Shown here: piece by piece, positions 5,538 to 29,038 of the stretch
How the letters are laid out: each line of letters begins with the position of its first letter
Numbering within the stretch: the stretch's first letter is position 1
From: an uncultured Oscillospiraceae bacterium
GTDB lineage: Bacteria; Bacillota; Clostridia; Oscillospirales; Ruminococcaceae
Assembly: GCA_900539195.1 (NCBI GenBank)
Contig: UQBC01000004.1
Span: 9,639 to 73,638, forward strand
Direction: 5' to 3'
DNA: 64,000 bases
Program-made: the position numbers and the translations under genes
Notes under the pieces: model-generated
What the model saw: the letters and a program-made list of their open reading frames with translations, nothing else
The model's database searches: none
What the model was told of the DNA's origin: nothing

Positions 5538-5545
5538 TATACATA

Positions 5546-7097: not shown

Positions 7098-7128
7098 GGC
7101 TATTTTTTGACAAAGGAACGAGTAAAAT

Positions 7129-8263: not shown

Positions 8264-8275
8264 TCGGAGGTTAGT

Positions 8276-8899: not shown

Positions 8900-8923
8900 T
8901 GGCTGAAAGAAAGGAGTACGCTT

Positions 8924-9121: not shown

Positions 9122-9140
9122 TCCCATAGGAGGTATAAAT

Positions 9141-9548: not shown

Positions 9549-9592
9549 CTCAGGTTGAAAATCATCTAAAATGAATAAGATCATAGGTCAGA

Positions 9593-9630
9593 AAAACCGT
9601 AGGGCTTTCATTGAAGCTCTACGGTTTTTA
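9593..9630. terminator. bidirectional rho-independent terminator between convergent genes
   Basis: AAAACCGTAG...CTACGGTTTT stem flanked by A/T runs. Confidence 0.5.
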
Positions 9631-9634
9631 ACAT

Positions 9635-11041: not shown

Positions 11042-11042
11042 A

Positions 11043-11747: not shown

Positions 11748-11808
11748 AATGCAATTCTCCTTTTTCTATATTATAGCATATCATTCCTGCATTTTCGCAG
11801 TGCAGTTC

Positions 11809-11846
11809 AAATGTAAGGTAAATGTAAGGTAGAGAGAAGGTTGACA
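11809..11846 (+). promoter_or_regulatory. tandem 11-bp direct repeat (AAATGTAAGGT x2) abutting -35 TTGACA of ABC operon promoter
   Basis: read directly; OmpR-family regulators bind direct repeats upstream of -35. Confidence 0.4.
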
Positions 11847-11897
11847 CAAGGTTGCGCCTTTATACTAAAGACAACAAAGGAAAGGAGATTTCACAAT

Positions 11898-12653
11898 ATG
11901 AATATAATCGAAACTCAAAATCTGACGAAAACCTACGGCGATTTCACGGCAGTATCCCATCTGAATCTCCATATTCGCAAAGGAAGCGTTTATGGATTTT
12001 TAGGTCCGAACGGGGCGGGAAAATCCACAACGATGAAAATGTTTCTCGGTTTGACGCAGCCGACAGAAGGAAGCTTTCATATTGACGGAAAAACATACCC
12101 TTCAGACCGAGTTCCCATTTTGAAGGAAGTTGGTTCATTTATTGAAGCACCCGCCTTTTACGGGAATCTGAGCGGAGAGGAAAACCTTGAAATTATACGG
12201 AAAATTCTTGGGCTTCCAAAAAGCTGTGTCGATGACGCTCTGGAGCTTGTCGGCTTAACTGAATTTAGAAAAAGACTGGCAAAAAAATACTCTCTTGGTA
12301 TGAAGCAGCGTTTAGGTTTAGCAGGCGCATTGATCGGCAGACCGCCGATCCTGATTCTCGACGAGCCGACCAATGGGCTCGATCCGGTGGGTATTCACGA
12401 GATACGCACCCTGATTCGTTCCCTGCCGCAGAAATATGACTGCACGGTATTGGTTTCTTCTCACTTGCTTCCTGAAGTAGAACTTATGGCTGACGATATT
12501 GGTATTCTGAATCACGGTCATCTGCTGTTTGAAGGAACAAAGGAAGAATTGAAAACAAACGCTCGTGCCGCCGGATTCCCGACGGATAATCTGGAAGATA
12601 CTTTCCTTGCTATGATTGATGAAGATAATCGCAGGAGAGGAGGTACGGTATGA
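11898..12653 (+). CDS. ABC transporter ATP-binding protein (lantibiotic/bacitracin-type LanF-like)
   Basis: Walker A GPNGAGKST, signature variant YSLGMKQRL, Walker B ILILDEP; ATG 11898 after AAAGGAG. Confidence 0.85.
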   Translation: MNIIETQNLTKTYGDFTAVSHLNLHIRKGSVYGFLGPNGAGKSTTMKMFLGLTQPTEGSFHIDGKTYPSDRVPILKEVGSFIEAPAFYGNLSGEENLEIIRKILGLPKSCVDDALELVGLTEFRKRLAKKYSLGMKQRLGLAGALIGRPPILILDEPTNGLDPVGIHEIRTLIRSLPQKYDCTVLVSSHLLPEVELMADDIGILNHGHLLFEGTKEELKTNARAAGFPTDNLEDTFLAMIDEDNRRRGGTV

Positions 12654-13375
12654 GTCTCTTAATAGAATCCAAAAAGCTGAAGCGCACAGGCTATCTTCCT
12701 GCTTTTTTGGCAGGTGGCTTTCTTGCAGCAGCTTTTCCGGTTGTCTATATGATGGTAAAAGCAGAGGAAATGACTGCACTCGCAGGCAATCCGATTAACA
12801 TACTGATGTCTGCGAACTGGCAGATGATGGCGATGTTGAATATTCTCATTTCCATTTGCGGCGCTTGTATGATGTACCACACGGAATATGCCGATAACGG
12901 TATGCAGAAAATGTCGGTGCTGCCCATTCGTCAAGGTAGTATGTTCTTTGGAAAATTTCTAATTGCCGCTTTGGTATTATCCGCAATGGTGGTCATAGAA
13001 ATGGCAGTCTTAGTCGGCTGTGCAAAGTATTGGTTTCCAAGTTATGTGTTTGACCTGACCGAAATATTGAAAACCGCAGGTTTCCAAATTATAGTTACGC
13101 TGCCGACTGTAATGCTTATGCTGGTTATTGCGTCTGCCTGTAAGAATATGTGGGTATCCCTTGGTATTGGCGTGATTTTAGTATTTACGCTTTCCATTCT
13201 TCCGCAGGATAATATTGTGTTGAGCCTGTTCCCGTTTGCTTCCCCGTATCAAATGCTCTCTGCGGCAGTGGAAAATAGCCGTACAGCCTTATTTTTAGCT
13301 GTTTGCGGGATTGAAACGGTCGTGTTCGGTATTGCAGAAGTCCTTTATCTGCAAGTAAGGAGGTGTTTTGAATGA
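12650..13375 (+). CDS. ABC-2 type permease (LanE-like)
   Basis: 6-TM hydrophobic 241-aa protein ATGA-coupled to ATPase. Confidence 0.6.
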   Translation: MSLLIESKKLKRTGYLPAFLAGGFLAAAFPVVYMMVKAEEMTALAGNPINILMSANWQMMAMLNILISICGACMMYHTEYADNGMQKMSVLPIRQGSMFFGKFLIAALVLSAMVVIEMAVLVGCAKYWFPSYVFDLTEILKTAGFQIIVTLPTVMLMLVIASACKNMWVSLGIGVILVFTLSILPQDNIVLSLFPFASPYQMLSAAVENSRTALFLAVCGIETVVFGIAEVLYLQVRRCFE

Positions 13376-14142
13376 ATTTCTTATCATTAGTCGGAGTGGA
13401 ACTCAAAAAAATCCGCCGCTCCAAAATCTTATTGATCTTGCTGATCCCTGTCATTATGATGTGGATTCCAAGCATTATCAATGCGGATATGAACTTCGAC
13501 CTGAGAGGAATCCCGATTACGCCGGAAAACAACTTTTTCATTCAGGGCTTTATGGGTATGGTTTGGTTTATGATCCCGGCGTCGCTGGTCATCTGTACGG
13601 TACTGCTGAATCAAACGGAACGCTCCAATAAAGGGATTTTGAAAATGCTGTCCCTGCCGATTAGCACAACGAAACTATGTCTTGCTAAATTCACAGTCCT
13701 GATTTTGTTGGCGGCATTTCAGATGGTTATGTCCATAGGAGCGTACTATATCTGTGCGGCAATCGTTACCCATACGCAGGATTATAATTTTATCCTTGAG
13801 CCATTATATGTCTGCAAAAATGTATGTAGTATCTATGCCGCTGCAATTCCAATGGCTGCTGTATACCTTGCGGTTTCCACTTTAATTCAATCTCCCATTT
13901 TTTCGGTCGGTATCGGTCTGGCTTCGATTGTACCTTCCGTGCTTATGATAAACACAAAAATCTGGTTTGCCTACCCGATGAGCTACCCGTTCTATCTGAT
14001 AATGGTGGCGTATGGGAGAGCTGCTGAAGGTGTTTATGAAACACAAATCGCTTGGCTTCCGTGGTTGCCTGTTGCAGTCGGAATCACTATTTTGGCACTT
14101 GTCGTATCCTGTATGCGATACGGCGCATCTGAAAGGAGATAA
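13372..14142 (+). CDS. ABC-2 type permease (LanG-like)
   Basis: second 6-TM permease translationally coupled. Confidence 0.6.
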   Translation: MNFLSLVGVELKKIRRSKILLILLIPVIMMWIPSIINADMNFDLRGIPITPENNFFIQGFMGMVWFMIPASLVICTVLLNQTERSNKGILKMLSLPISTTKLCLAKFTVLILLAAFQMVMSIGAYYICAAIVTHTQDYNFILEPLYVCKNVCSIYAAAIPMAAVYLAVSTLIQSPIFSVGIGLASIVPSVLMINTKIWFAYPMSYPFYLIMVAYGRAAEGVYETQIAWLPWLPVAVGITILALVVSCMRYGASERR

Positions 14143-14147
14143 CTACA

Positions 14148-14435
14148 ATGAAAAACAAAATTTTAACTGCGATTTCTACCATTATGCTCTTTGTCCCGTG
14201 GACGATCCTGCCACTGCGTACCTTTGATTGGGCGCTGGAATCCCCGGTAGCGGAGATTATGGTTTACAGTTACGCCGCCTTTATGATTTTTTCAGGTATC
14301 TTTTCCATTCTCAGCTATACCAAAGGAAAAGTAAAATCCAAACTTATGCAGGTATGTGTCGTGATTAACAGTATTTATGCGGTTGGTGCAATCGCAATTA
14401 TCGGTATGAATATTGTAACGAGGATTGGCGGGTGA
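14148..14435 (+). CDS. small membrane protein
   Basis: three hydrophobic helices. Confidence 0.35.
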   Translation: MKNKILTAISTIMLFVPWTILPLRTFDWALESPVAEIMVYSYAAFMIFSGIFSILSYTKGKVKSKLMQVCVVINSIYAVGAIAIIGMNIVTRIGG

Positions 14436-14916
14436 TGATATGAAAAAAATAAAAATTCTGACTGCCGTTTTGCTTTCCTTATGTTTGGCTTTTGCTGTTA
14501 CAGGGTGCAGCGGCGACAACCTGAAAGATAGTGTTATAAACGGCTTTAATGATATGCTCCAGCATTTCAGCAAATATGCCCTTACGGACGAAAAAGATTT
14601 GCAGGGCGATAAGACCAAAGGGGAAGATACCTATACCGGCTCCTATACAGCAGATTATGAGGATTTCAATGATAAAGAATATATCTTTGGAGGTACTGCG
14701 TTAGAACGGGATAAAGGAAGTGAGCTTACTGTAACTTACGAGTTGACGGTTGATTCCGGCACGGCAAGGCTTTACTGGCTTGATAAGGGCGAGGAAAAAA
14801 TGATTGTCGATACAAGTAAAAACGGAACATATTCCGTTACCCTTGACGAAGGCGACAACTATCTTACTTTAGAAGGTAATGATTTTTGCGGCTCATTGCA
14901 GGTGGTTGTGGAATGA
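14425..14916 (+). CDS. lipoprotein
   Basis: signal peptide with lipobox VTGC. Confidence 0.45.
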   Translation: MAGDDMKKIKILTAVLLSLCLAFAVTGCSGDNLKDSVINGFNDMLQHFSKYALTDEKDLQGDKTKGEDTYTGSYTADYEDFNDKEYIFGGTALERDKGSELTVTYELTVDSGTARLYWLDKGEEKMIVDTSKNGTYSVTLDEGDNYLTLEGNDFCGSLQVVVE

Positions 14917-15159
14917 TTGCAAAAGCAAGAACAAATCCGCTAAATCTTTGTGCTATGCCTAATACTTTGGAATGTTCGATAAACCGCTAATTCACTCTTG
15001 TTCAGATAAAGCAGAGCTGGATTTAATTCGCCATCTACTTTGCCATTGTCGCCATTTCACTCGCCATTTAATTTGCCATTCCGTATTGTCGCATTGAGCA
15101 TAAAAGCGTTATCAATTTTATTTCCCCATTTTTTAGCATAACATTGAGTAGTGAAAAGA

Positions 15160-15200
15160 ATGAAAACCGCAGGACTTCGATATATAGCTCTGCGGCTTTC
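15160..15200 (-). terminator. rho-independent terminator downstream of DUF1016 gene
   Basis: GCCGCAG...CTGCGG stem followed by U-run on minus strand. Confidence 0.4.
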
Positions 15201-15214
15201 AGCTTTTCGATATT

Positions 15215-16225
15215 TTAGTCTCTTTTGATATGCTTTTGTATATCTTCCACAGACGGGAGCTGTTTGCTCAAAGCTTCAGGAAGCTCACTTGTAACTTTGT
15301 ATTCGCTGACACCGATTGGCTTTGACATATCTTTTAAGGCATATTCAGCGACTAATGCGTTTTTGCTTTTGCACAGCAACAGACCGATAGAAGGATTGTC
15401 ATTATCCTTTTTCAAAATCCCGTCAACGGCTGAGAGATAAAAGTTAAGCTGTCCAGCATATTCCGGCTTAAATTCTCCGGTTTTCAGCTCAATCACAACA
15501 TAGCAGCGAAGATTAAGGTTGTAGAACAGAAGATCAATGTAAAAATCATCGCCGCCGACATTGAGATGATATTGATTGCCGAGAAACGCAAATCCCGTTC
15601 CCAACTCTAAAAGCAGCTTCGTTACATCCTGAACAAGAGCCTGCTCTATATCCCGTTCTACCATATCTTCCTTGAAAGGGATAAAATCAAAAATGTATGG
15701 ATCTTTCATTGTTTGTACGGCAAGCTCACTCTGCGGCGAAGCAAGTCGACTTTCAAAGTTTGAAATCTTATCAGCAATAGCCTGCCGTTCATATAAGCCG
15801 CTTTCAATCTGATGAATCAAGACATTATGCGACCAGCCATTTTCTGCGGTCTTTCGTATATACCACTCTCTTTGCTTTTCTCCTTTAACCTTATCCAAAA
15901 TTGCAACATTGTGCGACCACGGAATTTGTGCAGACACCGTCTGCACAAATTGCTCATCAGGATAAGTGCTTGCAAATTTTGACATATATTTAAGGTTGCG
16001 AACAGAATAGCCCTTTGCGTTCGGGAACGAGAGCTTAATATCAGCCGCCAGATTTTCAATAAATTTATTGCCCCAAGATTTATGCTCGTTTATGATTTTT
16101 CCGATATTGTAATACAGCATAATCAGCTCTTTATTTACACTTAAAGTAGCTTTGTACTGCGCCTGCTGAATTTCCTGTTTGATAGTTTGCACCAAATCAA
16201 GATATTCGTTATTATTCATCAACAT
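15215..16225 (-). CDS. DUF1016 (YhcG-like) PDDEXK-family nuclease
   Basis: C-terminal D...ELK restriction-endonuclease-like motif (IDLLFYNLNLRCYVVIELK); YhcG-type N-terminal domain. Confidence 0.65.
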   Translation of the reverse strand: MLMNNNEYLDLVQTIKQEIQQAQYKATLSVNKELIMLYYNIGKIINEHKSWGNKFIENLAADIKLSFPNAKGYSVRNLKYMSKFASTYPDEQFVQTVSAQIPWSHNVAILDKVKGEKQREWYIRKTAENGWSHNVLIHQIESGLYERQAIADKISNFESRLASPQSELAVQTMKDPYIFDFIPFKEDMVERDIEQALVQDVTKLLLELGTGFAFLGNQYHLNVGGDDFYIDLLFYNLNLRCYVVIELKTGEFKPEYAGQLNFYLSAVDGILKKDNDNPSIGLLLCKSKNALVAEYALKDMSKPIGVSEYKVTSELPEALSKQLPSVEDIQKHIKRD

Positions 16226-16244
16226 CTTTATACCCTCCAGTTAT

Positions 16245-16832
16245 CTATTTCAAAAATTGATTGCGGTATTCCTGATGACGGAAACGGTAGCCCTGTGCGA
16301 TCAGCGTATCCGTTTTCAATGCGACCAAGTTTATATCCGAGTGCATTGCCCGTGCGATTTGCTGAATATCATACCCATTTTCGATATATTCCAGTATTTC
16401 ATCATCAGGCAGGGAGATTTGGGAAGCAAAGATGTTTGCCTCGTACTCCATCCGGCTTTGCCGCATATCGAAAATATTAAATTCCTTGAAGCCGCCGGCT
16501 TTGACCGCTTCTTCTCTATGTAATGCGTCGTGTCCAATCTCATGCAGCATTACGATACGCTCCATTACAGGGTGCAGATCGTCTTTTATGAAGATAAAAC
16601 GGTTACGCATTAAAACCTTGTATGCCCCTCGCTGTTTCTTGAAGGCTAATGGGATAACTTCTATGCCCAGTTCTTGTGCGATTCTATGCGGATCTCTTGT
16701 GCAAAGGTCATTTGCCAGCCGATTCGCCTTTCTGACAATCTCTAAAGTCTGAATATCCAAGAGCAAACACCCCCATTCTACTGCCAGTAAGTATATCTTA
16801 TCAAATACACTGTCCGAAAAAGAGGACATCAA
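16245..16832 (-). CDS. ImmA/IrrE-family metallopeptidase
   Basis: HEIGH HExxH motif; overlaps upstream XRE gene by 4 nt. Confidence 0.75.
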   Translation of the reverse strand: MMSSFSDSVFDKIYLLAVEWGCLLLDIQTLEIVRKANRLANDLCTRDPHRIAQELGIEVIPLAFKKQRGAYKVLMRNRFIFIKDDLHPVMERIVMLHEIGHDALHREEAVKAGGFKEFNIFDMRQSRMEYEANIFASQISLPDDEILEYIENGYDIQQIARAMHSDINLVALKTDTLIAQGYRFRHQEYRNQFLK

Positions 16833-16835
16833 GCG

Positions 16836-17240
16836 TTATTTCCGGTATTTTTTGGGAGTGTACTTTTTATTCTTCTCTTTGGCGATCCAGTACGCTTCCT
16901 GAATGCCTTTCATCATCTCGTCCAAATCCTCATCTGCAAGCTCGCCGCCTGCAAAAAGCCCCGTAACCTCTGCCATAAGCTCCTTTGCCTGTCTTGCGCC
17001 TTTGCTTCCGTATTTGGATTCAGCGTTCAGCAGAAATTCCTCGTCATCGGTAAGCAGATAGTTGACATCGACCTTCAGGACTTCCGCCATCTTATAATAG
17101 GTTTCCCTTTTTTTCGGGTAGCGGGTGCCAGCCTCATAATTCGATACTGTCCGCAGAGAAACGCCGATTGCTTTTGCAAACTCATCTTGCTTTAAGCCTG
17201 CCTTCGTGCGGGCTTCTTTTACTTTCTCACAGAATTTCAT
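16836..17240 (-). CDS. XRE-family repressor (ImmR/Tn916 Orf9-like)
   Basis: HTH_3 KQDEFAKAIGVSLRTVSNYEAG; ATG at 17240 with GGAGG RBS (track ORF extends to 17390 through promoter region). Confidence 0.75.
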   Translation of the reverse strand: MKFCEKVKEARTKAGLKQDEFAKAIGVSLRTVSNYEAGTRYPKKRETYYKMAEVLKVDVNYLLTDDEEFLLNAESKYGSKGARQAKELMAEVTGLFAGGELADEDLDEMMKGIQEAYWIAKEKNKKYTPKKYRK

Positions 17241-17281
17241 TTCATCTGACCTCCAAATTATTCGACCTGATTTGAAAATAT

Positions 17282-17390
17282 CTTGCGTATCTATATTGAC
17301 AAGCGCAAGTAAATTTCGTATAATGTCAATACGCAAGTAAGTTGCGTATATATAATAACCGAACTTGCGTGTTTTGTCAAGGGAGTTCAA
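17282..17390. promoter_or_regulatory. divergent promoter/operator region (lysogeny-switch-like)
   Basis: + strand TTGACA(17296)-17nt-TATAAT(17319); palindrome TACGCAAGTAAGTTGCGTA at ~17330-17348; repeated CTTGCGTA/ACGCAAG half-sites; minus-strand TTGACA-17-TATTAT near 17340-17380. Confidence 0.55.
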
Positions 17391-17453
17391 TCAATTAGCT
17401 TGAACTTTTATCTACCAACAAATGATACCCGTTTTAAGGATTGAGGCGAACAG

Positions 17454-18020
17454 ATGGGACGGAAAGATACAATCGCTGCGAAAAGTATTCGGAAAATGTA
17501 CGAGCAGCTTAATTTGAATCAATCGGATATATTCTCGAAAACAAAATTGCTTCTTGGCGTATACCGTGATGTGGTCTGGATTACGCTGAGCGAGTCTGCC
17601 CGTGTGAATGAGGAGCTGGCATATTACGGAGAAGAACTGGACAGCGCCCTTGTCTATTTGGAGCTGTTTGCGCCGGATACCGAGAAGCAGGAGTTTGAGA
17701 GCCGTATCAGCGCTTTGTTTGAGAACAAGTGGATGGTTGACCTGATTGATACCGCTATGGCGAAAATATATGACTACCATAACAACGGCAGGCTGTACCA
17801 CGAAATCATATCGAAAAGCTACCTGACAGCATTTCGGTATACGGAGAGCGAACTGCTCGATCTCTTGAATATGGAGCGCAGTACCTTTTACGACCGGAAA
17901 CGGGAAGCGATTTTGCTTCTCGGCGTATCTCTGTGGGGATATGCGATTCCGTGCTTCAAAGGAATCTTTAATATGAAGGGAGCTGATGAAAGCGGCGATA
18001 TTCCCGATTTTTTCAAATAA
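17454..18020 (+). CDS. HTH/sigma-like transcriptional regulator (Tn916 Orf7-like)
   Basis: C-terminal region resembling sigma-70 region 4/ArpU HTH; position divergent from repressor. Confidence 0.4.
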   Translation: MGRKDTIAAKSIRKMYEQLNLNQSDIFSKTKLLLGVYRDVVWITLSESARVNEELAYYGEELDSALVYLELFAPDTEKQEFESRISALFENKWMVDLIDTAMAKIYDYHNNGRLYHEIISKSYLTAFRYTESELLDLLNMERSTFYDRKREAILLLGVSLWGYAIPCFKGIFNMKGADESGDIPDFFK

Positions 18021-18506
18021 AGGCTTGTCCGACTAAAGTCCGACGAAATCCCTACTGAATGTCCGACCTTGCGTATGCTACACTGTGTATGCTGCCCGAA
18101 GAACGGCTTTCGTTTACAGAACGAGGCTGAAAACGAAATGGCAGAAAATTGGCACAGTTTTGCCGATGATACGGAAAAGCAAATCTGTTACAATTAGTAT
18201 GCCTAAAGCTTTGAGAATTTTTCTTGATTTTCAAATGCTGGTTGAATATCTTTTAGGCGGCAATACAGCAGCTTAGGCAAAACGAATTGAATATGTGTTT
18301 TGAAGAAGCAGTTATAGCTTTCAGCCTTCGGGCGTGAATGTTATAGCTGCTTTTTTTGTGCAGCCCTTTTCGCTTTTGTCAAGCGGAAAGGGAGCTTTAT
18401 GTCTATCACAGTATGGCAGGCGTTTGTATGTAGGTATCCGTGATCTCCGGAGTTTTTGATTGTGACCTTATATATCAAAAATTCCAAATTTAAGGAGATT
18501 ACGGAA

Positions 18507-19091
18507 ATGAAAAAACTTACAGTAAAAAAGCAGGTAGAATTATTTGCACAGGATTGTAAACTCATCAACCTTCAGTATGAGTATAGTGGTTTCACTGGAA
18601 CGGAAAAATGGGCAATTATAACGGAGCTGTCCGAAGAAGCATTGTGGGATAAGTACCCTGATGTCATCAGCAGGTATACGCCTTTTATACTTCTGTCAAT
18701 GGCACAGGGAGAAGTGATTAGTGAATCACATAGAAATAATGATAAATATGAAAAGCGCAGCAAAAGGACGATAGATGTATACGGTTACGAAGATGATATT
18801 TTTGAGCAGTTCCATCCGAAATCTATCGCACCGTTTATTGATCCGTTTGATAAAGCGGAGGAGGAACAGATCGAGGAAGAAAAAGAAAAGCTGCGGCAAT
18901 TAGAACTTTCTAAGGTAAGACAAGCGTTAAGTATGCTGCAACCTGTTCAAAGGGAGCGCCTTCTTAAATCCGTTTTGCTTGGGATTAGTTCAAGGAAAAT
19001 TGCGAAAGAGGAGGGCATAAATTATAGCTCCGTAGATAAGTCAATCGCTGCCGCAATAAAAAATTTCAAAAAATTTTATGAAAACCTCTGA
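18507..19091 (+). CDS. sigma-70 region-4-like HTH protein (Tn916 Orf8-like)
   Basis: C-terminal LLKSVLLGISSRKIAKEEGINYSSVDKSIAAAIKNF resembles sigma70_r4; ATG 18507 after AAGGAG. Confidence 0.5.
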   Translation: MKKLTVKKQVELFAQDCKLINLQYEYSGFTGTEKWAIITELSEEALWDKYPDVISRYTPFILLSMAQGEVISESHRNNDKYEKRSKRTIDVYGYEDDIFEQFHPKSIAPFIDPFDKAEEEQIEEEKEKLRQLELSKVRQALSMLQPVQRERLLKSVLLGISSRKIAKEEGINYSSVDKSIAAAIKNFKKFYENL

Positions 19092-19200
19092 TTTTGGGTG
19101 TGCATTTCGCACCCCTTTGTCCAAATGAGTGAAGGGGTATTTCTATTCCGGATATGAAATGCGCTTTCAAAACTCAATGAACAGAGAGGTTATACATAAA

Positions 19201-19752
19201 ATGAAGAAAACAGAAATCAGGCGTGGAGATATATTTTCCTACGATTTTGGCACAAGAATCGGCTCTATCCAATCAGGTGTAAGACCTGTGCTGGTAATTC
19301 AGGCAGACAATTTCAATGCGAATGCGCCTACTGTTATTGTTGCGTCCATTACGAGTGTAATAAAAAAGAGGTATTTGCCGTCCCACATTATTTTAGGCGA
19401 GGATTTTGGTCTGACGAAGCCTTCAATGGTGTTGCTTGAGCAAATACAGACTGTGAATAAAGATGATTTGACAGAGTATATTGGCTTTGTTGATGATGAG
19501 CGCCTTTGGAGACAGATTAACGCAGCCTTGAAAAAAACATTCGGTCTATGGCTTTACAACACTAACAGGATCGGCGACATTCGCTGCCTGTGTCCGAAAT
19601 GCTTAAACGACTATTTTCGCAATCCGAACTATGTTGTCAGACGCCTTGATCCTTTCGCTAAAAGTAAAGGCACTTGTGATAAGTGCAATGATAGAGGTTG
19701 GGATTATATCGTTTATGATAAACGCACCTCTTTCAAAGGGAAAGGGGTATAG
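19201..19752 (+). CDS. MazF/PemK-family toxin (mRNA interferase fold) fused to C-terminal zinc ribbon
   Basis: IRRGDIF...GSIQSGVRPVLVIQ...TVIVASITS PemK signature; C-terminal CLCPKC...CDKC; ATG 19201 after AGAGAGG. Confidence 0.6.
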   Translation: MKKTEIRRGDIFSYDFGTRIGSIQSGVRPVLVIQADNFNANAPTVIVASITSVIKKRYLPSHIILGEDFGLTKPSMVLLEQIQTVNKDDLTEYIGFVDDERLWRQINAALKKTFGLWLYNTNRIGDIRCLCPKCLNDYFRNPNYVVRRLDPFAKSKGTCDKCNDRGWDYIVYDKRTSFKGKGV

Positions 19753-19754
19753 GG

Positions 19755-19976
19755 ATGTCGCAAAGCAGGGAAAGGAAACGGAAGTTTGACATTCCTATAT
19801 GGTGTAAGGCAAATCTGTCGATTGAAGAAGCCGCAGCCTATTCCGGTATCGGAATGGCAAAGCTTTATGAGATGACAGAAAGTGAGGATTGCCCATTTGT
19901 CTTATGGATAGGTAGCCGGAGAATGATTAAGCGAAAAGCTTTTGATGAGTATATAGAGCGGCAATACTCAATTTAA
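19755..19976 (+). CDS. xis: excisionase, Tn916 Xis family (HTH_17), copy 1
   Basis: IPIWCKANLSIEEAAAYSGIG...WIGSRRMIKRKAFDEYI matches Tn916 Xis pattern. Confidence 0.7.
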   Translation: MSQSRERKRKFDIPIWCKANLSIEEAAAYSGIGMAKLYEMTESEDCPFVLWIGSRRMIKRKAFDEYIERQYSI

Positions 19977-20073
19977 TGAAAAAGTCAAGCCTGCGATGAG
20001 CCGATTCGCATAATTGGCTTATCGCAGGATATTGACTATGCTGTAACTACCAAAAGCAAGGAGGTACAGCAAT

Positions 20074-20295
20074 ATGCTTAGCAAAAAGCACAATCCGGAT
20101 ATGTCGAGAGTCCCGTTGTGGAAGAAAATGAATTTGACGGTGGAAGAAGCCGCCGAATACTCAGGAATAGGCGTATCTAAAATTAAAGAAATTTCAAATC
20201 AAAAAAACTGTCCCTTTGTCCTATGGAATGGAACAAAGCGGTTGATTAAAAGAAAACAATTCGAGGATTATCTCGAAACACAATATTCCGTCTGA
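20074..20295 (+). CDS. xis: excisionase, Tn916 Xis family, copy 2
   Basis: VPLWKKMNLTVEEAAEYSGIG...WNGTKRLIKRKQFEDYL. Confidence 0.7.
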   Translation: MLSKKHNPDMSRVPLWKKMNLTVEEAAEYSGIGVSKIKEISNQKNCPFVLWNGTKRLIKRKQFEDYLETQYSV

Positions 20296-20310
20296 GAGGA
20301 GGACAAGCTA

Positions 20311-20547
20311 ATGGATAATAAACTGACTGAAACAAGCAGTTCCAACAGGCGTGTGGCTGCTGTTCCAATTTGGGTAAAACCTTATTTGACGATAGAAGAA
20401 GCGGCAGAGTATACGGGAATAGGTAGGGATAAGCTTTATGAAATGACGAGCCTTGCCGATTGTCCGTTTGTGCTGTGGGTAGGCAATCGGAGAATGATTA
20501 AGCGCAGGATTTTTGATGAATACATTGAGCAAATGTATTCAATATGA
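20311..20547 (+). CDS. xis: excisionase, Tn916 Xis family, copy 3
   Basis: VPIWVKPYLTIEEAAEYTGIG...WVGNRRMIKRRIFDEYI. Confidence 0.7.
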   Translation: MDNKLTETSSSNRRVAAVPIWVKPYLTIEEAAEYTGIGRDKLYEMTSLADCPFVLWVGNRRMIKRRIFDEYIEQMYSI

Positions 20548-20557
20548 TGGAGGTTGT

Positions 20558-20797
20558 ATGGACGAAAAAATTTTAGCTTACAGAAGTGAACTCCAAAAGA
20601 GGTCGGAAAACACACAGTTTTGGACGAAAACGATTTTAACCGTTGAAGAAGCTGCCGCATACACCGGAATCGGAAGGGCAAAAATCCGCCAAATCATTTC
20701 ACAAGGGAATTGTCCTTTCACGGTAAATAACGGCACACAAATCTGTGTGATCCGAGAAGCGTTCATTGATTATCTTGATAAGCAGTTTCGCATATAG
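20558..20797 (+). CDS. xis: excisionase, Tn916 Xis family, copy 4 (most divergent)
   Basis: TKTILTVEEAAAYTGIGRAKIRQI...NNGTQICVIREAFIDYL; ATG 20558 after GGAGG. Confidence 0.65.
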   Translation: MDEKILAYRSELQKRSENTQFWTKTILTVEEAAAYTGIGRAKIRQIISQGNCPFTVNNGTQICVIREAFIDYLDKQFRI

Positions 20798-20811
20798 GAG
20801 GAGAGAGAATT

Positions 20812-22068
20812 ATGCCGAGAACAAAAAGAAAAGACAAGTCGAGAGCCGTGCTTCGGACAGGCGAATCGCAAAGGGCTGACGGAACTTATCAATTCCGATG
20901 GACTGACAGCAATCATAAGAGGTTTTGCGTATATGCCAAGACGCTTGATGAATTGCGCTACAAGGAAGAACAAATTAAAAAAGATAAGAGCGATGGCATT
21001 AAAGCCGAAGCCCGATATACGACGGTCAATGAGGTCTATGAGCTTTGGAAGGAACTGAAGCGAGGGCTGAAGAACAACACCTTTGAGAATTATAAATATA
21101 TGTATGAAACCTTTGTCCGTCATCAAATAGGCTCAAAAACAGTTTCATCGCTGAAAAAAACAGATATAAAGAGGTTTTATAATTACCTTACAGACGAACG
21201 CCAGCTAAAACCCTCGACCATTGACAGTATCCATACGGTATTACATCAAATTTTGGATATGGCGGTTGATGATGATTATATAAGAAATAATCCGTCAGAT
21301 AATGTACTTAGAGAGCTGAAGCAAGCACATTGCTTCAAAACAGAAAAGCGCAGAGCCTTAACCCGTCCCGAACAGGAATTATTTTTAAGCTACTTGAAAA
21401 ATACTCCCGCCGCACAATATTGGTATCCAATCTTTGCGGTTTTGTTAGGAACAGGACTTCGAGTTGGAGAACTTACCGGATTAAGATGGTGTGATGTCGA
21501 TCTGGAGAATGATGTTATTGATGTAAATCATACTTTGGTTTACTATGACCACCGCACCGATGGAAGCAAAAAAGGCTGCTATTTTAATGTCAATACGCCG
21601 AAAACTCCGGCTGGAAAGAGAAAAGTGCTAATGCTCAGCTTTGTGAAAGAGGCAATTATAATGGAAAAGGAAAGGCAGGAGCTGCTCGATCTTCATTGTA
21701 CCGCTACCATTGACGGATACACAGATTTCATTTTTATCAATCGCTTCGGCAATCCACAACATCAGGGAACGCTCAATAAAGCAATCCGCCGCATAATTCG
21801 TGACTGTAATGATGAGCAGTTTTTGAAGAACGAAAATCCCGAAGTGCTGCTTCCGCATTTTAGCTGCCATTCATTAAGACATACATTTACAACGAGAATG
21901 TGCGAAGCAGGAGTGAATGTCAAGGTCATTCAAGATACGCTTGGTCATAAGGATATTTCAACAACGCTTAACATCTATACCGATGTGACGAAGGAGCTTA
22001 GGCAGTCCGAGTTTGAAGGTCTTGACTCATATTTCAAAAGCGAGTATAATAAAGTGTCTAACGAATAA
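20812..22068 (+). CDS. int: tyrosine site-specific integrase, Tn916 Int family
   Basis: N-terminal LRTGESQRADGTYQFRW (Tn916 Int-like arm-binding domain); C-terminal R...HSLRHT...Y catalytic motifs. Confidence 0.9.
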   Translation: MPRTKRKDKSRAVLRTGESQRADGTYQFRWTDSNHKRFCVYAKTLDELRYKEEQIKKDKSDGIKAEARYTTVNEVYELWKELKRGLKNNTFENYKYMYETFVRHQIGSKTVSSLKKTDIKRFYNYLTDERQLKPSTIDSIHTVLHQILDMAVDDDYIRNNPSDNVLRELKQAHCFKTEKRRALTRPEQELFLSYLKNTPAAQYWYPIFAVLLGTGLRVGELTGLRWCDVDLENDVIDVNHTLVYYDHRTDGSKKGCYFNVNTPKTPAGKRKVLMLSFVKEAIIMEKERQELLDLHCTATIDGYTDFIFINRFGNPQHQGTLNKAIRRIIRDCNDEQFLKNENPEVLLPHFSCHSLRHTFTTRMCEAGVNVKVIQDTLGHKDISTTLNIYTDVTKELRQSEFEGLDSYFKSEYNKVSNE

Positions 22069-22231
22069 GTGGCATTTCTTGAGCGAGGATAAAAGCTTCT
22101 ACACCATTTACACCAATTTATACTCCAATCCACCGAAAAACTACACGAATTTATAGGGATATGGCGATTCAGGAAGAAACCCCGTTTAGACCTATTATGA
22201 GATATGAGGAGGTTTAGGAGAGATTGAAAAG

Positions 22232-22702
22232 ATGGTTGCTTTCGTCCCGACAATGAAGAGCCTTGATTCCGACAAGAAGCCGTCGGGTATTCCGAAAACC
22301 AAGGACGCTGTTGTTGAAGAAAAGATTGATTTTTCAAAGGTGAAGGTTGAGCCTTTGTTTGAAGAATATGTTGATTTTGAAACATTCTCAAAGTCAGATT
22401 TCCGTGCAGTAAAGGTTAAGGCTTGCGAGGCTGTTAAGAAGTCGAAGAAGCTTTTACAGTTCACTCTTGATGACGGCACAGGCACAGACCGCACAATTTT
22501 AAGCGGTATCCACGCTTATTATGAGCCTGAAGAGCTGGTTGGAAAGACTCTTATCGCTATCACAAATCTTCCGCCGAGAGCAATGATGGGCATTGACTCC
22601 TGCGGTATGCTCCTCAGTGCAGTTCACGAGGAAGAAGGCGAAGAAAAGCTCCACCTCCTCATGGTCGATAACCATATCCCCGCAGGTGCAAAGCTTTATT
22701 AA
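22232..22702 (+). CDS. tRNA-binding domain protein (MetRS C-terminal/CsaA/Trbp111-like)
   Basis: FRAVKVKACEAV...LVGKTLIAITNLPPRAMMGIDSCGMLLSA matches tRNA-binding OB-fold of MetRS C-terminus; own RBS and in-frame stop upstream. Confidence 0.7.
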   Translation: MVAFVPTMKSLDSDKKPSGIPKTKDAVVEEKIDFSKVKVEPLFEEYVDFETFSKSDFRAVKVKACEAVKKSKKLLQFTLDDGTGTDRTILSGIHAYYEPEELVGKTLIAITNLPPRAMMGIDSCGMLLSAVHEEEGEEKLHLLMVDNHIPAGAKLY

Positions 22703-22791
22703 AATATGATGTAAAAATGTACCGTTTACAAAATAGATTGATGCAGAAATCGGTGCAAGCAAGGAAAAATCGCATAATTAGTGCAATGAGT

Positions 22792-22820
22792 GGGCAATTC
22801 CAATCGGGATTGCCCATTTT
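22792..22820 (+). terminator. rho-independent terminator
   Basis: GGGCAATTCC-AATC-GGGATTGCCC hairpin followed by ATTTT. Confidence 0.4.
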
Positions 22821-22887
22821 CAGAAAGAAAAAGACAAATCGGAATTTGAGAAGGTAAGTGAATGGGATACCATGGAGGAATATGATA

Positions 22888-24231
22888 ATGTCGAAAGATG
22901 AGTATTTGATAACCGATACGCCCCTCAAAGCGTTGACGGTTTTTGCAATGCCAATGATTCTTGGAAGTTTTTTTCAGCAAATATACAATATGGCCGACTC
23001 TATTATTGTCGGTCAGTTTGTTGGTTCTTCCACACTTGCAGCTGTCGGTGCATGTGCAGCATTGACCAATGTGTTCATTTGTGTGGCACTGGGAGCCGGT
23101 GTCGGAGCCGGTGTGCTTGTGAGCCGTTATTTCGGAGCCAGGGAGTATGGCAAAATGAAAACAATCGTGTCAACCTCCTTGATTAGCTTTTTGCTTCTAA
23201 GTATAGTCCTTGGTGTTTTTGGCTTTTTCTTTGCCAACTCGATGATGAGTGGACTGCAAACCCCTGCCGACATACTGGATGATGCAGTACTGTATCTGCG
23301 GGTCTATTTTGTGGGCTTTCCGTTTCTGTTTATGTATAACATTCTTTCTACCATGTTCACCTCAATCGGCGAATCCAAAATTCCGCTGGGACTGCTGATT
23401 TTTTCGTCCATCCTGAATATTTTAATGGATCTTTGGATGGTAGCCGGGCTAGGTCTCGGTGTGTTCGGTGCGGCTATTGCAACCCTGATTGCACAGGGAA
23501 TTTCCGCAGTGTTTTCGTTTTTGATTTTCTTTGCACGGATGCAGCAATATAAAAGCCCCTTTAACAGGTTTGAACGGCAGGAGCTGTATTCCATGCTTCG
23601 CATTGCGGTGCCGTCGGTTTTACAGCAGTCCACAGTGTCCATCGGTATGATGATTGTGCAGGCAGTGGTAAATCCTTTCGGTACACAGGCACTCGCCGGG
23701 TACACAGCAACGATGAGGGTGGAAAATGTTTTTTCATTGATCTTTGTATCCATCGGCAATGCGGTTTCGCCGTATGTTTCCCAGAATCTTGGTGCAAAGA
23801 AAATTGATCGTATCAAAAAAGGCTACCATGCTGCACTGGTGCTGAATCTGTGCTTTGCGGTCATTGCGTTTGTGACCATTGAAGCGCTGCATACGCAGAT
23901 CTCCTCACTGTTCTTAGGAAAAGACGGAACGGCGTTTGCCTATCAGGTGTCCGGTGATTATATGAGGTGGCTTGGTTACTTTTTCATCTTCATGGGTATC
24001 AAGATGGCAACCGATGGAGTTCTTCGCGGTCTCGGAATTATGCGTCCGTTCCTCGTTGCAAACATAGTGAATCTTGCGATTCGTCTGTCCGTTGCCCTAA
24101 TCTGTGCACCACGTTTCGGCATTGCCTTTGTCTGGCTTGCGGTACCGGTTGGCTGGCTTGCAAACTTTTTAATCTCCTATGTGGCTCTTAGGAGATCATG
24201 GCCGACTGATAAAATGGCATCCATTAGTTAA
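22888..24231 (+). CDS. MATE family efflux transporter
   Basis: 12-TM protein with MATE N-terminal pattern (PMILGSFFQQIYNMADSIIVGQFVG); ATG 22888 after GGAGG. Confidence 0.8.
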   Translation: MSKDEYLITDTPLKALTVFAMPMILGSFFQQIYNMADSIIVGQFVGSSTLAAVGACAALTNVFICVALGAGVGAGVLVSRYFGAREYGKMKTIVSTSLISFLLLSIVLGVFGFFFANSMMSGLQTPADILDDAVLYLRVYFVGFPFLFMYNILSTMFTSIGESKIPLGLLIFSSILNILMDLWMVAGLGLGVFGAAIATLIAQGISAVFSFLIFFARMQQYKSPFNRFERQELYSMLRIAVPSVLQQSTVSIGMMIVQAVVNPFGTQALAGYTATMRVENVFSLIFVSIGNAVSPYVSQNLGAKKIDRIKKGYHAALVLNLCFAVIAFVTIEALHTQISSLFLGKDGTAFAYQVSGDYMRWLGYFFIFMGIKMATDGVLRGLGIMRPFLVANIVNLAIRLSVALICAPRFGIAFVWLAVPVGWLANFLISYVALRRSWPTDKMASIS

Positions 24232-26010: not shown

Positions 26011-26054
26011 AGATAACAAACGAAGGGAGGCAATTGCCTCCCTTCGTTTGTTAT
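26011..26054. terminator. 44-nt perfect palindrome; bidirectional terminator between convergent genes
   Basis: GATAACAAACGAAGGGAGGC-AATT-GCCTCCCTTCGTTTGTTATC. Confidence 0.5.
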
Positions 26055-27577
26055 CTACTCCTTCCACGGTTTGGTGGAGAATATGGTCTTGTTAACTCTC
26101 GCTCCTTTATGTCCTGTTTCTTAGATATAAGCCTATCGTGTAGAGACTGTGGCTTTTCTCCATACCGTTGTTTCCAATTCTTAAGGCTGTCCTGATAATC
26201 CCCATAAGCTGTCTCTGACTTATGAAATGCTTTGTAGAAGGCTTCCGCATTCTGATACCCGTATTCCTTTACGATATGGGATAATCGGGCTTTCATTCGG
26301 GAAATACGTTCCTCCAATCCGGCTATCTCTGTTGAAAGTTCGGAACGCCTTTTTGCTTTGAAGATACCTTTGCTGTCGGACAGTTCAATTTCAAGGTCAC
26401 TTCGCTGTTTCTCGAGTGCAAAAATTGCTTTATTCTGTTCTTGCAGCTTTTGATAAATTTCGCATAAGTGCTTGTAAGAAACTGCTTCCGGTGATGGCTG
26501 TGGTCTTGGCGGTATGGCAGGCTTTGGTGTATCTGTCTGCTTTCTGCTTTCTTCTGGTACAGCTTTCTGCTCTTTGAAATCTGTGTTCTCCGGTCTTGCT
26601 TCAAGCTCTTTGGAAATTACTTTATCTGCAAGCTCCAGAGTTTTGAGAAATACTTTGGAGATTAACAGTTCTAATACTGCAATGGCAGTACCGATAATGG
26701 AAGATAACAGATTCGGTCTGTTTCCGTAAAGCCATACGGATTCCACAATCTTGTCCGTTATCCGTTCCTTTTTTATCTGCATGATTTCTGACTTGGAAAC
26801 ACCCGTTACAATCGCTCTGTCAACAGTCTGATTCCACAAGGTGCGTTTACTGTTGTCTGCCTCAATCTCGGTGGCTTTCGGATTGTTCTTACCAATCTTT
26901 TTGGTGGCAAGATACATACCGCCACGCTCAAAAACTTCTAACCGCTGGCTTTTATCCCACACATACTGATTGATAAGATTGGTATAATCCTGCTTGACGG
27001 TATCAAGGAAATTTTCAGCCTTGAAGTGTTTATTCTTAATGGAGAAAATCTGTCTTTCGTATACCTCACCTTTGTGAATCACCTTACACCTTTTACGGAT
27101 ATTTCCTTCTTCATCAAGTATCTCTTTCTTGGTGCGTACATGATTTCCCTTTTCGTCATAGAACATATTGCGGGTGGCAACCTTTTCTATGGGCTGTTCC
27201 AAGAGTGTACGCTCCGAAAAAATGAGATGGATGTGATAGTTGGTTTTCCGCTTATTGTGATGCAGGGCTGCGATACAGTCCGTTCCGTAAGTCTGTCTGA
27301 AATGGTCTGTAAATATCTGCAACAGTCTGTCTGGAGGATACTCCGTAAAAGATTCCGGCAGGGCTATGATCAATTCCCTTGCCTCAATACATTTCCCCTC
27401 CGTACCGTTTTTTTTAAATTCTGCCTGATTATATTTTGCAAGGTCAGTCCAAAAATTACGGTCTGTGGTTTCATATACCGCATACAGATTTTCCTGTTTC
27501 TTTGGGCTTGAAATATAATAAATTCTTCCCCGGACATTGTGGAGCTTCGTCATCTGAATAAATGAATTTCTTGGCAT
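26051..27577 (-). CDS. mobilization relaxase (MOB superfamily, 3-His motif, C-terminal coiled coil)
   Basis: HHNKRKTNYHIHLIF (H-x-N..N-x-H-x-H); N-terminal Tyr region RGRIYYIS; AAGGAGG RBS before MPRNSF (track start 27604 is TTG). Confidence 0.6.
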   Translation of the reverse strand: MPRNSFIQMTKLHNVRGRIYYISSPKKQENLYAVYETTDRNFWTDLAKYNQAEFKKNGTEGKCIEARELIIALPESFTEYPPDRLLQIFTDHFRQTYGTDCIAALHHNKRKTNYHIHLIFSERTLLEQPIEKVATRNMFYDEKGNHVRTKKEILDEEGNIRKRCKVIHKGEVYERQIFSIKNKHFKAENFLDTVKQDYTNLINQYVWDKSQRLEVFERGGMYLATKKIGKNNPKATEIEADNSKRTLWNQTVDRAIVTGVSKSEIMQIKKERITDKIVESVWLYGNRPNLLSSIIGTAIAVLELLISKVFLKTLELADKVISKELEARPENTDFKEQKAVPEESRKQTDTPKPAIPPRPQPSPEAVSYKHLCEIYQKLQEQNKAIFALEKQRSDLEIELSDSKGIFKAKRRSELSTEIAGLEERISRMKARLSHIVKEYGYQNAEAFYKAFHKSETAYGDYQDSLKNWKQRYGEKPQSLHDRLISKKQDIKERELTRPYSPPNRGRSR

Positions 27578-27717
27578 GTGCTTCCTCCTTTCCGTATCTG
27601 CCAAGTACGAAGCTGCAAGAAATGAGGATGGGAAACTTTCTAATGTGAAAGTGAGTAGGCTACATAGGTAGCCTGTCTACGAACATATCCGCCTGTCGGC
27701 GAAAAGCTCCCAGCAGG

Positions 27718-27769
27718 GCGAAATACACAGAGTACAAATCGTAAGATTTGTGCGAGGGGTGTATTTCGC
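27718..27769. repeat. nested inverted repeats upstream of relaxase gene (candidate oriT)
   Basis: GCGAAATACAC...GTGTATTTCGC enclosing ACAAATC-GTAA-GATTTGT. Confidence 0.3.
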
Positions 27770-27928
27770 TCTCAAACGCCGAGGGCTTGTATAAAAAAGT
27801 TTCTTCCCCACTTCTTAAATTTCCGGTTGTATCTTAGAGGAAGCACATGGTATAATCTATTTGCGTGTAGGTATATCATGGCTTCGGTCAGATACATACC
27901 TTAGGGATGGTCTTAGGACTGTCCCTAT

Positions 27929-28159
27929 TTAATTTGTCACATTTCTTGTGACAGCTCTGACATTTCCTTTGTCCCTTAAGTCCCTGCCTTCATTGGCGGT
28001 CATGAACTTTTCAAGCATATCCGTTTTGATAAGGACTTTCCGTCCTACCTTCAATACCGGAAGCTTTTTCCATTCTACCAGTTTCCGCAGGGTATTTCTG
28101 CCGATACCCGTATAGTCGGCAGCTTCCTCAATGGACAGTGCAATCTTCACTTCTGTCAT
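27929..28159 (-). CDS. excisionase-family DNA-binding protein (HTH_17)
   Basis: LSIEEAADYTGIGRNTLRKLV...KVGRKVLIKTDMLEKF. Confidence 0.65.
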   Translation of the reverse strand: MTEVKIALSIEEAADYTGIGRNTLRKLVEWKKLPVLKVGRKVLIKTDMLEKFMTANEGRDLRDKGNVRAVTRNVTN

Positions 28160-28334
28160 TAAAACACCTCCTCTTGAATTGCATAATGCAATTTTGTAAC
28201 TATGCCTACTATATAACTTTTATATCTTCTTGTCAAGCGTTACGAAATTTTAAAAGTAATTATTAACTTGCATATTGCAATGCTACTTTTACTGTGTTAT
28301 ACTTTAGCCATACCGAAAAAGGAGGCGTATCAGA

Positions 28335-28955
28335 ATGAAAGATAAAGAATTACGCAAGTTAATCGGTAGCAGGGCAAAACAACGCAGACTGGAATTAGGT
28401 GTCAACCAGCCTTATATAGCAGAAAAGATGGGAGTTACCGCTTCCACCATACAGCGGTATGAGGCAGGAACGATTGACAACACCAAGAAGCTTGTTCTGG
28501 ATGGTCTGTCGGAAGCACTTCATGTATCAGTGGAGTGGTTGAAGGGCGAGACGGAAGAAATGACAAGTGATGTTACGGATAAAAGGGAATTACAGATTCG
28601 TGATACCATGACTTCCATTCTCTCCAAACTTCCTTATGATATGAAGGCAGACGAAGCGGATTTTTCCAAAGATTTACTGCTGCTGATGTTGAAGGAATAC
28701 GAATTATTCGTTGATTCCTTTCAATATGCCTGTAAGAATTTTAAAGGGAATACGGAAGATGCCACAATCGCAAAAGTAATGGGGTTTGAATCCAATCAGG
28801 AATATAATGAGATTATGTTCCTTAGGGAAATCACCCATACGGTAAATGCACTGAACGACATGGGCGACATTGTAAGGCTCTATTCCAAGAATCCCGAAAC
28901 GGCAGCCGTAAGGCTTGCAAATCTTCTTTCAGAGAAAGACTCCGAACCGGTATAG
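28335..28955 (+). CDS. XRE-family HTH regulator with C-terminal extension
   Basis: HTH_3 QPYIAEKMGVTASTIQRYEAG. Confidence 0.7.
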   Translation: MKDKELRKLIGSRAKQRRLELGVNQPYIAEKMGVTASTIQRYEAGTIDNTKKLVLDGLSEALHVSVEWLKGETEEMTSDVTDKRELQIRDTMTSILSKLPYDMKADEADFSKDLLLLMLKEYELFVDSFQYACKNFKGNTEDATIAKVMGFESNQEYNEIMFLREITHTVNALNDMGDIVRLYSKNPETAAVRLANLLSEKDSEPV

Positions 28956-29038
28956 ATAGACAACCGGAGTTATGATATACTTACACGCAGAAAGCATTTC
29001 ATCAGTTCCGATTGTCGATATCGAAAGGAGAAACGATT

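Follow-up and report, generated by a model that had tools for sequence, protein, structure and literature searches.

The stretch of DNA analyzed here (64,000 nucleotides (nt) from an uncultured Oscillospiraceae bacterium, contig UQBC01000004.1; hereafter the window) contains, immediately upstream of a single tyrosine integrase gene (int), four small genes of the Tn916-type excisionase (Xis) family arranged head to tail. All four lie on the forward strand: copy 1 at 19755-19976 (73 amino acids (aa); PF09035 E = 6e-21), copy 2 at 20074-20295 (73 aa; E = 1e-25), copy 3 at 20311-20547 (78 aa; E = 1e-18), and copy 4 at 20558-20797 (79 aa; E = 3e-14), in exact agreement with the coordinates given in an initial annotation made from the sequence alone. 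Each copy scores above the Pfam gathering score for PF09035, the Tn916-Xis family (53.5-90.2 bits; cut-off 22.9), above the gathering score for HTH_17, and above the cut-off of the NCBIfam model TIGR01764, 'excisionase family DNA-binding protein' (33.5-41 bits; cut-off 28.8), and copy 2 aligns to the Tn916 Xis sequence 1Y6U with E = 2.5e-11. The motif EEAA-x-Y-[ST]-GIG is present in every copy. Copies 1, 2 and 3, which we assign to a canonical class, carry a Trp followed by I-K-R-[KR] in the wing (W-I-G-S-R-R-M-I-K-R-K, W-N-G-T-K-R-L-I-K-R-K, and W-V-G-N-R-R-M-I-K-R-R, respectively), and copy 4, which we assign to an Int-proximal variant class, reads N-N-G-T-Q-I-C-V-I-R-E at this position, so that NNGTQ does stand in place of the Trp as first described. 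Copies 2, 3, 4 and int are co-oriented and lie 10-15 nt apart. A Shine-Dalgarno-like sequence is clear before copies 2, 3, 4 and int and weak before copy 1. The ATG of copy 4 at 20558 is preceded by GGAGG, and the listing of open reading frames (ORFs) gives an upstream TTG at 20513. Protein identity to copy 1 is 48% for copy 2, 62% for copy 3 and 37% for copy 4, and BLASTP returns 64% between copies 1 and 3 and 38-51% between copy 4 and the other copies, as expected from the earlier ranking of copies 1 and 3 as the closest pair (62-64%) and copy 4 as the most divergent (37-51%).

At the DNA level the copies are only ~66-70% identical to one another. Independent assemblies contain the array again, with 94-100% nucleotide identity, and in seven assemblies independent gene callers report all four ORFs; one related locus (L214) is 100% identical to the window at copy 1. 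Because the copies are this dissimilar in DNA and the array is recurrent and called in independent assemblies, it is neither a chance occurrence nor an assembly artefact; collapsed duplicates, or a single intact ORF among broken ones, had been raised as possibilities, and what is seen instead is four distinct intact ORFs.

The integrase (Int; 20812-22068, forward strand, 418 aa) combines a Tn916-type N-terminal arm-binding domain (PF02920 Integrase_DNA, E = 8e-19) with a catalytic domain (PF00589, E = 9e-30) and is ~30% identical to the integrases of Tn1549 and a Tn1545-like element in plasmid records. The Int protein was scanned against one genome per species, which gave 183 relatives; 80 loci were returned, with Int 76-100% identical, from many genera of Clostridia. 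When these were searched with a profile built from the four copies, essentially all 80 proved to carry Xis ORFs in tandem just upstream of Int. Array size was counted in the 63 loci with complete upstream sequence, where four copies were the most frequent arrangement (38/63), followed by three (20/63), five (4/63) and two (1/63), and no locus had a single copy. Metagenome contigs carrying the same core in the methionyl-tRNA synthetase gene metG (described below) display the same multi-copy pattern, with at least seven right-end sequence types. Tn1549 and the Tn1545-like element have one annotated excisionase each, and the nearest outgroup found, a Subdoligranulum element with an Int 55% identical to that of the window, has a single Xis. 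The premise of the initial annotation that Tn916-type elements normally carry one xis is thus upheld, and its question of whether relatives carry one copy or four is answered by a range of 2-5 among the counted loci and by one in distant relatives. The single Subdoligranulum Xis is 57% identical to copy 1, 56% to copy 3 and 31% to copy 4; because it resembles copies 1 and 3 and not copy 4, the canonical type is ancestral, and the array is a derived trait that the metG-targeting clade has conserved.

Related arrays match position by position. Between the window and two related loci (L009 and L069), copies at the same position are 63-82% identical, against 33-63% for all other pairings; in L009, the position-1 copy is 82% identical to copy 1 and the position-3 copy is 74% identical to copy 3. 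Clustering likewise groups the copies by position across related elements and not within one element. In 78 arrays the Int-proximal copy is never canonical, the basic I-K-R-K wing being absent; its wing reads x-I-R-E in 70 of the 78, with similar variants in the other 8, whereas every one of the 193 classifiable copies at the remaining positions is canonical. An N-terminal extension is a further mark of the variant class. Copy 4 thus belongs to a separate, strictly Int-proximal class, and its earlier description as the most divergent copy, although correct as to identity, is incomplete since it misses this class distinction.

All four copies are under purifying selection: the ratio of nonsynonymous to synonymous substitution rates (dN/dS) is ~0.05-0.25 for every copy with dS saturated (0.08-0.13 for copy 2, 0.05-0.09 for copy 3, and 0.14-0.19 for copy 4), and copy 1 has a dN of 0.10-0.17 against its orthologues, where dS is again saturated. 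A recent tandem amplification that left redundant dosage copies or decaying pseudogenes, or else an error of assembly, would account for the tandem head-to-tail arrangement alone, and is extremely improbable in view of copies that are 37-64% identical in protein and correspondingly diverged in DNA, of positional orthology across species, of purifying selection, and of arrays intact in many independent assemblies. The local amplification suggested in the initial annotation consequently gives way to an old architecture, in which 3-5 copies with positional orthology are found in essentially all of the Int clade.

The AlphaFold2 model of copy 4 (mean predicted local distance difference test score, pLDDT, of 77) places a helix at residues 3-23 ahead of a winged helix. 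The N-terminal helix is predicted with low confidence (pLDDT 53-58), and the homologue search for copy 4 gave close relatives only, resulting in a shallow AlphaFold alignment of 12 rows. Among structures in the PDB the best match to the model is Tn916 Xis, 1Y6U (template-modelling score 0.73, target-normalized; root-mean-square deviation 2.1 Å over 55 columns), and the next matches are RdfS (8DGL), Pukovnik Xis (4J2N), P2 Cox-like and BldC structures. All of the closest structural relatives (Tn916 Xis, RdfS, Pukovnik Xis, P2 Cox and BldC) oligomerize head to tail when they act on DNA. Lambda Xis, Pukovnik Xis, RdfS of ICEMlSymR7A, P2 Cox and 186 Apl are of the same fold class as the window proteins and place head-to-tail subunits on adjacent sites; these homo-oligomeric recombination directionality factors (RDFs) use one gene product on repeated sites, unlike the window, which has diverged paralogues and no visible repeat in the attachment arm. 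According to passages of PMC11963761, an extra N-terminal helix drives the oligomerization of RdfS, a feature to which the predicted N-terminal helix of copy 4 may correspond.

Downstream of int, the Int-proximal attachment arm and core occupy 22069-22258 on the forward strand. Directly after int, all arm types carry two to four TTACACCA-like repeats, which are putative Int arm-type sites; in the window the candidate repeats are TACACCA at 22100-22106 and again at 22109-22115, TATACTCCA at 22119-22127, and TACACGA at 22142-22148, beyond which lies a lineage-specific stretch of ~85-110 nt. Between the last repeat and the core, the sequence shows no relationship from one lineage to another, but its length is fixed across 19 arm types, at 111-115 nt or, where the third repeat is degenerate, at 125-126 nt. 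Homology between related loci ends at 22258, the last position of an 18-nt shared core, TTCGTCCCGACAATGAAG (22241-22258), that lies inside metG and is common to dozens of loci (genomes and contigs) and at least seven right-end types. The 3' part of metG (22232-22702, forward strand) encodes the C-terminal tRNA-binding domain of methionyl-tRNA synthetase (MetRS; TIGR00399, PRK12267 positions 530-647). Because homology ends at the 18-nt core and the core is followed by the MetRS C-terminal domain, we conclude that the element integrates site-specifically in metG, and since at least seven right-end types use the same core, this site is an insertion hot spot. An element-borne Shine-Dalgarno sequence and ATG at 22232 (region 22217-22702) reads in frame (MVAFVPTMK) into the split-off part of metG; where the host MetRS is of the short kind, the core is followed by just 4-5 codons.

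Copies 1 and 2 are separated by a 97-nt spacer (19977-20073, forward strand) that contains a promoter-like footprint as well as a hairpin. In nearly all arrays such a spacer, 89-108 nt long, comes after the first copy and after no other, the remaining intergenic gaps being 8-26 nt or overlaps. In the window the long hairpin extends over ~19984-20037, with core arms at 19990-20006 and 20012-20028, and the RNA fold of the spacer has a free energy of -46.4 kcal/mol (z = -8.1). The stem is retained in 25 diverse spacers, largely via G-U pairs, which fits a structure formed in RNA. The promoter-like footprint (TTGGCT at 20014-20019, 17 nt, TATGCT at 20037-20042, and an invariant A at 20049) overlaps the 3' hairpin arm and fits a housekeeping promoter; among the 25 spacers the invariant columns are T48, G50, C52, T71-A72-T73..T76 and A83, and they coincide exactly with T-T-G-x-C-x and T-A-T-x-x-T. 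A second small hairpin (20039-20071) surrounds the Shine-Dalgarno sequence of copy 2. In most relatives, though not in the window, the stem is followed by a T-run resembling that of an intrinsic terminator. An Rfam search of 16000-23000, spacer included, gave nothing credible.

On its other side, copy 1 adjoins a gene for a PemK/MazF-like protein (19129-19752, forward strand; PF02452 E = 1e-23; PHROG 'MazF-like growth inhibitor'), for which gene callers choose a later start that yields 183 aa. The protein has a zinc-ribbon-like C-terminal CxxC...CxxC extension and no recognizable antitoxin. The gene is conserved upstream of the arrays, and it is preceded in the window by a gene for a sigma-70 region-4 protein (18456-19091, forward strand; PF08281 E = 1e-6), a counterpart of the sigma-like regulators of Tn916 and Tn1549, which opens the conserved block that runs into the array. 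In one decayed element whose right end is still in metG (L074; CAUFXR010000061.1), a deletion, corresponding to 18655-21092 of the window, took the MazF-like gene, the entire Xis array and the 5' part of int. From this layout we infer two expression units, [sigma-like, MazF-like, Xis1] and [Xis2, Xis3, Xis4, Int], with a terminator and/or promoter between them. The array is not one uniform block, as the conserved regulatory spacer sets copy 1 apart.

The proximity of copy 1 to the MazF-like gene also brings into consideration that copy 1 is an antitoxin or co-regulator partner of the MazF-like protein and no excision factor, in which case the real array would consist of copies 2-4. The ATG of copy 1 (19755) lies 3 nt past the MazF-like stop codon (19750-19752), the terminator-like hairpin follows copy 1 in most relatives, and the MazF-like gene co-occurs with arrays both in the window clade and in the Monoglobus element described below and is missing where Xis is single. 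In one metagenome-assembled genome (MAG) the two genes are fused in frame (L056, 6595-7413), but only one MAG contig shows this fusion, which might reflect an error in sequencing, and the related locus L059 is unfused. Copy 1, moreover, comes closer than the other three to the single outgroup Xis (57%), shares 64% identity with copy 3, and retains the full canonical DNA-binding wing. It matches excisionase and HTH_17 families only and no known MazE/PemI-type antitoxin family, the known antitoxins of MazF/PemK proteins being of other folds, and neither copy 1 nor the MazF-like protein is matched by PADLOC models. Taken together, these observations make a pure antitoxin or partner role for copy 1 distinctly unlikely.

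A distant relative is found in Monoglobus pectinilyticus (NZ_OY725736.1; L212), in which VirB4 shares 90% identity with one found upstream of the window and the sigma-like and MazF-like proteins are 47% and 40% identical, respectively, to their window counterparts. Its layout is the same, with a sigma-like gene, a MazF-like gene and a first HTH_17 gene, then a 107-nt spacer that forms a strong hairpin, and then three further HTH_17 genes and an integrase gene. The integrase shares 21% identity with the window Int, lacks a Tn916-type arm-binding domain and is unrelated to it. Three HTH_17 domains are joined in the 233-aa product of the third HTH gene of this element (L212 41219-41920; NZ_OY725736.1 466218-466919). 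By a Rosetta-stone argument, three domains in one chain would work together on adjacent DNA, and we regard this triple fusion as the strongest indirect evidence that the separate paralogues may act jointly on neighboring DNA. Right after the first Xis gene, both elements carry the motif TTGTCAA-N3-TGCGAT-N7/9-(A/T)TCGCATAATT (window 19982-20049, L212 40857-40890); the motif is common to window-type spacers and Monoglobus, and TTGTCA and CATAAT are 21 nt apart in both. This spacing is too wide for a standard sigma-70 promoter and could mark a promoter for the element sigma, an operator or an RNA site. In RefSeq all four Monoglobus genes are labeled 'helix-turn-helix domain-containing protein', a designation that renders the pattern invisible in databases.

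The best explanation for these findings is that the four ORFs are real, functional, and anciently diverged paralogues of the winged-helix excisionase (RDF) family that would form, with Int, an excision module. How several paralogues serve one integrase is a more tentative matter, and the proposal we put forward, for which the case is slightly short of evenly balanced, is that excision is directed by a heterotypic multi-subunit Xis assembly, the hetero-oligomerization, DNA targets and regulatory order of which are deduced from sequence. Several different Xis subunits would bind side by side on the lineage-specific arm segment, possibly also on the other arm or on promoters, and the bound subunits would bend the DNA and turn Int to the excision reaction. 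A specialized role in nucleation or in contacting Int may fall to the Int-proximal variant, which has an extra N-terminal helix and a non-basic wing. In favor of the proposal are the family match of all four copies, the arrays of 3-5 copies throughout the Int clade, purifying selection on every copy, the positional classes and orthology, the Monoglobus fusion, the oligomeric action of the structural relatives, and a divergence of Xis sets and arm segment that far outpaces that of Int. Copy 1 would be made together with the sigma-like and MazF-like proteins, and copies 2-4 and Int would be produced from the second unit behind the spacer. The multi-subunit or regulatory role suggested in the initial annotation is, to this extent, plausible.

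Sites of RDFs are described in passages of PMC7498355 as typically arrays of repeats one helical turn apart. Several observations weigh against a heterotypic assembly on the Int-proximal arm. No candidate set of Xis sites was identified, and there are no significant 10-11-nt periodic repeats in the arm segment; across 20 distinct arm segments, autocorrelation reached z = 2.1 for an offset of 10 and z = 1.0 for one of 11 and peaked at offsets of 24 and 33 (z ~3), in a test that is blind to heterotypic sites. Heterotypic subunits on a long lineage-specific arm would explain the absence of a visible repeat. The length of the arm segment is the same with 3, 4 or 5 Xis genes (19 arm types), which argues against a simple one-site-per-gene model in this arm. 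The other arm (attL) escaped recovery: no second core turned up in any fetched locus with exact or degenerate searches, viral contigs yielded three matches within an unrelated gene that are put down to chance, and a metagenome scan gave right-end junctions and chance matches only, apparently since the exact 18-mer is the element-borne version. The canonical copies of distant arrays are without a one-to-one match, which implies that some may be interchangeable. Finally, the separation of copy 1 by the conserved regulatory spacer and its coupling to the MazF-like gene point to a role of its own.

Several of these points would fit a division of labor, in which one copy or class is the true excisionase and the others are regulators of the AlpA, TorI, Apl or Xis2d type that act on the int operon, conjugation genes or immunity. 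The placement of copy 1 in a different transcription unit, behind the hairpin and promoter-like spacer, and an arm length that does not scale with copy number both favor this reading, and copy 4 has weak matches to the PHROG 'excisionase and transcriptional regulator'. Dual or purely regulatory HTH_17 proteins are also established, as indicated by passages on Apl (PMC7498355) and on promoter activation by RdfS (PMC11963761). The Monoglobus triple fusion, however, is more easily explained by joint action on one stretch of DNA, all copies remain tightly packed with int, and the search for an operator motif that recurs in both the spacer and other window promoters gave none. We therefore regard a division of labor as the main rival, somewhat less likely than the heterotypic assembly.

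If a heterotypic assembly is assumed, the pattern of divergence between elements invites a further and more speculative interpretation. The Xis sets are 29-75% identical between elements, as compared with 76-88% for Int, and relative to the types represented by L024-L043 both copy 4 and the arm are no longer alignable, whereas the int gene that lies between them still is. An ordered heteromeric excisionase filament might then serve as a combinatorial identity code, in which a lineage-specific Xis set and a matching arm of fixed length would let each element excise only itself despite a common Int type, common Int arm sites and a common metG hot spot, with expression gated by the RNA hairpin and promoter switch and possibly by the MazF-like zinc-ribbon protein. 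We regard this extended scheme as unlikely in its entirety.

The array and int belong to a block (18434-22258) that is alignable in most related loci. Upstream, the gene order is ImmA-type peptidase and Xre repressor, a 188-aa protein, the sigma-70 region-4 protein and the MazF-like protein. The ImmA/IrrE-type M78 peptidase (16248-16832; PF06114 E = 2e-16) and the Xre-type helix-turn-helix repressor (16836-17390; PF01381 E = 3e-13) are encoded on the reverse strand, both divergent from the regulatory genes of the forward strand. A promoter scan found two near-consensus promoters (12/12 and 11/12 matches) at 17284-17380 among repeated TTGCGTA/TACGCAA motifs. In the divergent region as a whole (17270-17390) these repeats look like Xre/ImmA operators, and such operator-like repeats would suggest a derepression switch similar to that of ICEBs1. 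We also considered the spacer palindrome as an operator in common with the Xre promoter region and rejected this, as the half-site TGCGATRAG is not enriched elsewhere (41 matches versus 30 expected) and the Xre repeats differ.

Positions 1-16000 of the window are cargo and encode ABC transporters, a two-component system, small detoxification enzymes and a YhcG nuclease. The two-component system and its ABC-2 transporter set (9638-14139) are typical of peptide-antibiotic resistance modules, and the YhcG/DUF1016 PD-(D/E)xK nuclease (15218-16225) is a strong match to the PADLOC candidate defense family PDC-S02 (E = 2e-147). Contigs with the first gene of the window extend to the left into TrbC, TrbL_2, PrgI, VirB4, sortase and CHAP genes, and the closest annotated VirB4 relative in RefSeq is a 'VirB4-like conjugal transfer ATPase, CD1110 family'. 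Because these contigs continue into conjugation genes, the window starts inside a large integrative conjugative element (ICE). The element itself is a distant member of the Tn916-type integrase group and not a Tn916-family transposon in the narrow sense, because its Int is only ~30% identical, its VirB4 is of the CD1110 family and its integration is metG-specific; the initial label 'Tn916-type' is therefore apt for the Xis family and the arm-binding domain of Int and does not extend to the element, with its distant Int, four xis genes and metG specificity. A second mobile element lies downstream (26054-30337), comprising a MobA/MobL relaxase gene (26054-27604, reverse strand), a single HTH_17 Xis-like ORF (27932-28219, reverse strand), an Xre-type helix-turn-helix gene (28335-28955) and another tyrosine integrase gene (29012-30337). 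At a locus of another host (L213, 10502-13393), an identical Int is followed by a metG fragment and then by a mobilizable element with two adjacent DUF6462 genes, a relaxase gene and MobC; DUF6462 is a family related to HTH_17, and small tandem helix-turn-helix genes thus occur in neighboring elements as well.

Excisionases are usually treated as one small protein per element. The Xis proteins of Tn916 (1Y6U), Tn1549 and Tn1545 share with the window copies the PF09035 family, the winged-helix fold, and a position directly upstream of a co-oriented tyrosine integrase gene with a Tn916-type arm-binding domain, and Tn1549 also has sigma-like regulators upstream, as in the window. Tn1549 and Tn1545-like elements have one xis, however, in contrast to the four genes of two classes, split by a regulatory spacer, found here, and the Tn916/Tn1545 family inserts with low specificity in AT-rich targets and has coupling sequences, whereas the window element uses an 18-nt core inside metG. 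More than one small element protein per tyrosine integrase is required in the Bacteroides elements CTnDOT (Xis2c, Xis2d and Exc) and NBU1/Tn4555, where some of these proteins double as transcription activators. These proteins do not form a tandem array of 3-5 paralogues of a single family with fixed positional classes, and they belong to another host phylum and integrase family. Passages of PMC5704250 likewise present CTnDOT, NBU1 and Tn4555 as multi-protein excision systems. The tripartite ICE3 of Mesorhizobium, like the window, has several RDF genes per element; as described in passages of PMC5882170, its three RDFs form a regulatory cascade in which each serves its own integrase and att pair, whereas the RDF-type genes of the window accompany a single integrase. 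Neither tandem Tn916-type Xis arrays nor metG-targeting elements were described in the full-text literature searched, an absence that is no proof of novelty. What appears to be new is a conserved array of paralogues with positional classes beside one integrase, unlike the known multi-protein excision systems, with a mechanism that is inferred.

A very common lineage of conjugative elements in Clostridia of the human and animal gut, whose members carry resistance and defense cargo, thus keeps 3-5 diverged Xis paralogues beside one integrase. Such an array is unexpected for specialists, very widespread, and directly testable. Should the paralogues prove to form a heteromer, directionality control would be built in a new way, elements in competition for a single chromosomal site could each gain their own excision specificity, and genome engineers working with Clostridia would have a set of orthogonal Int/Xis/att parts.

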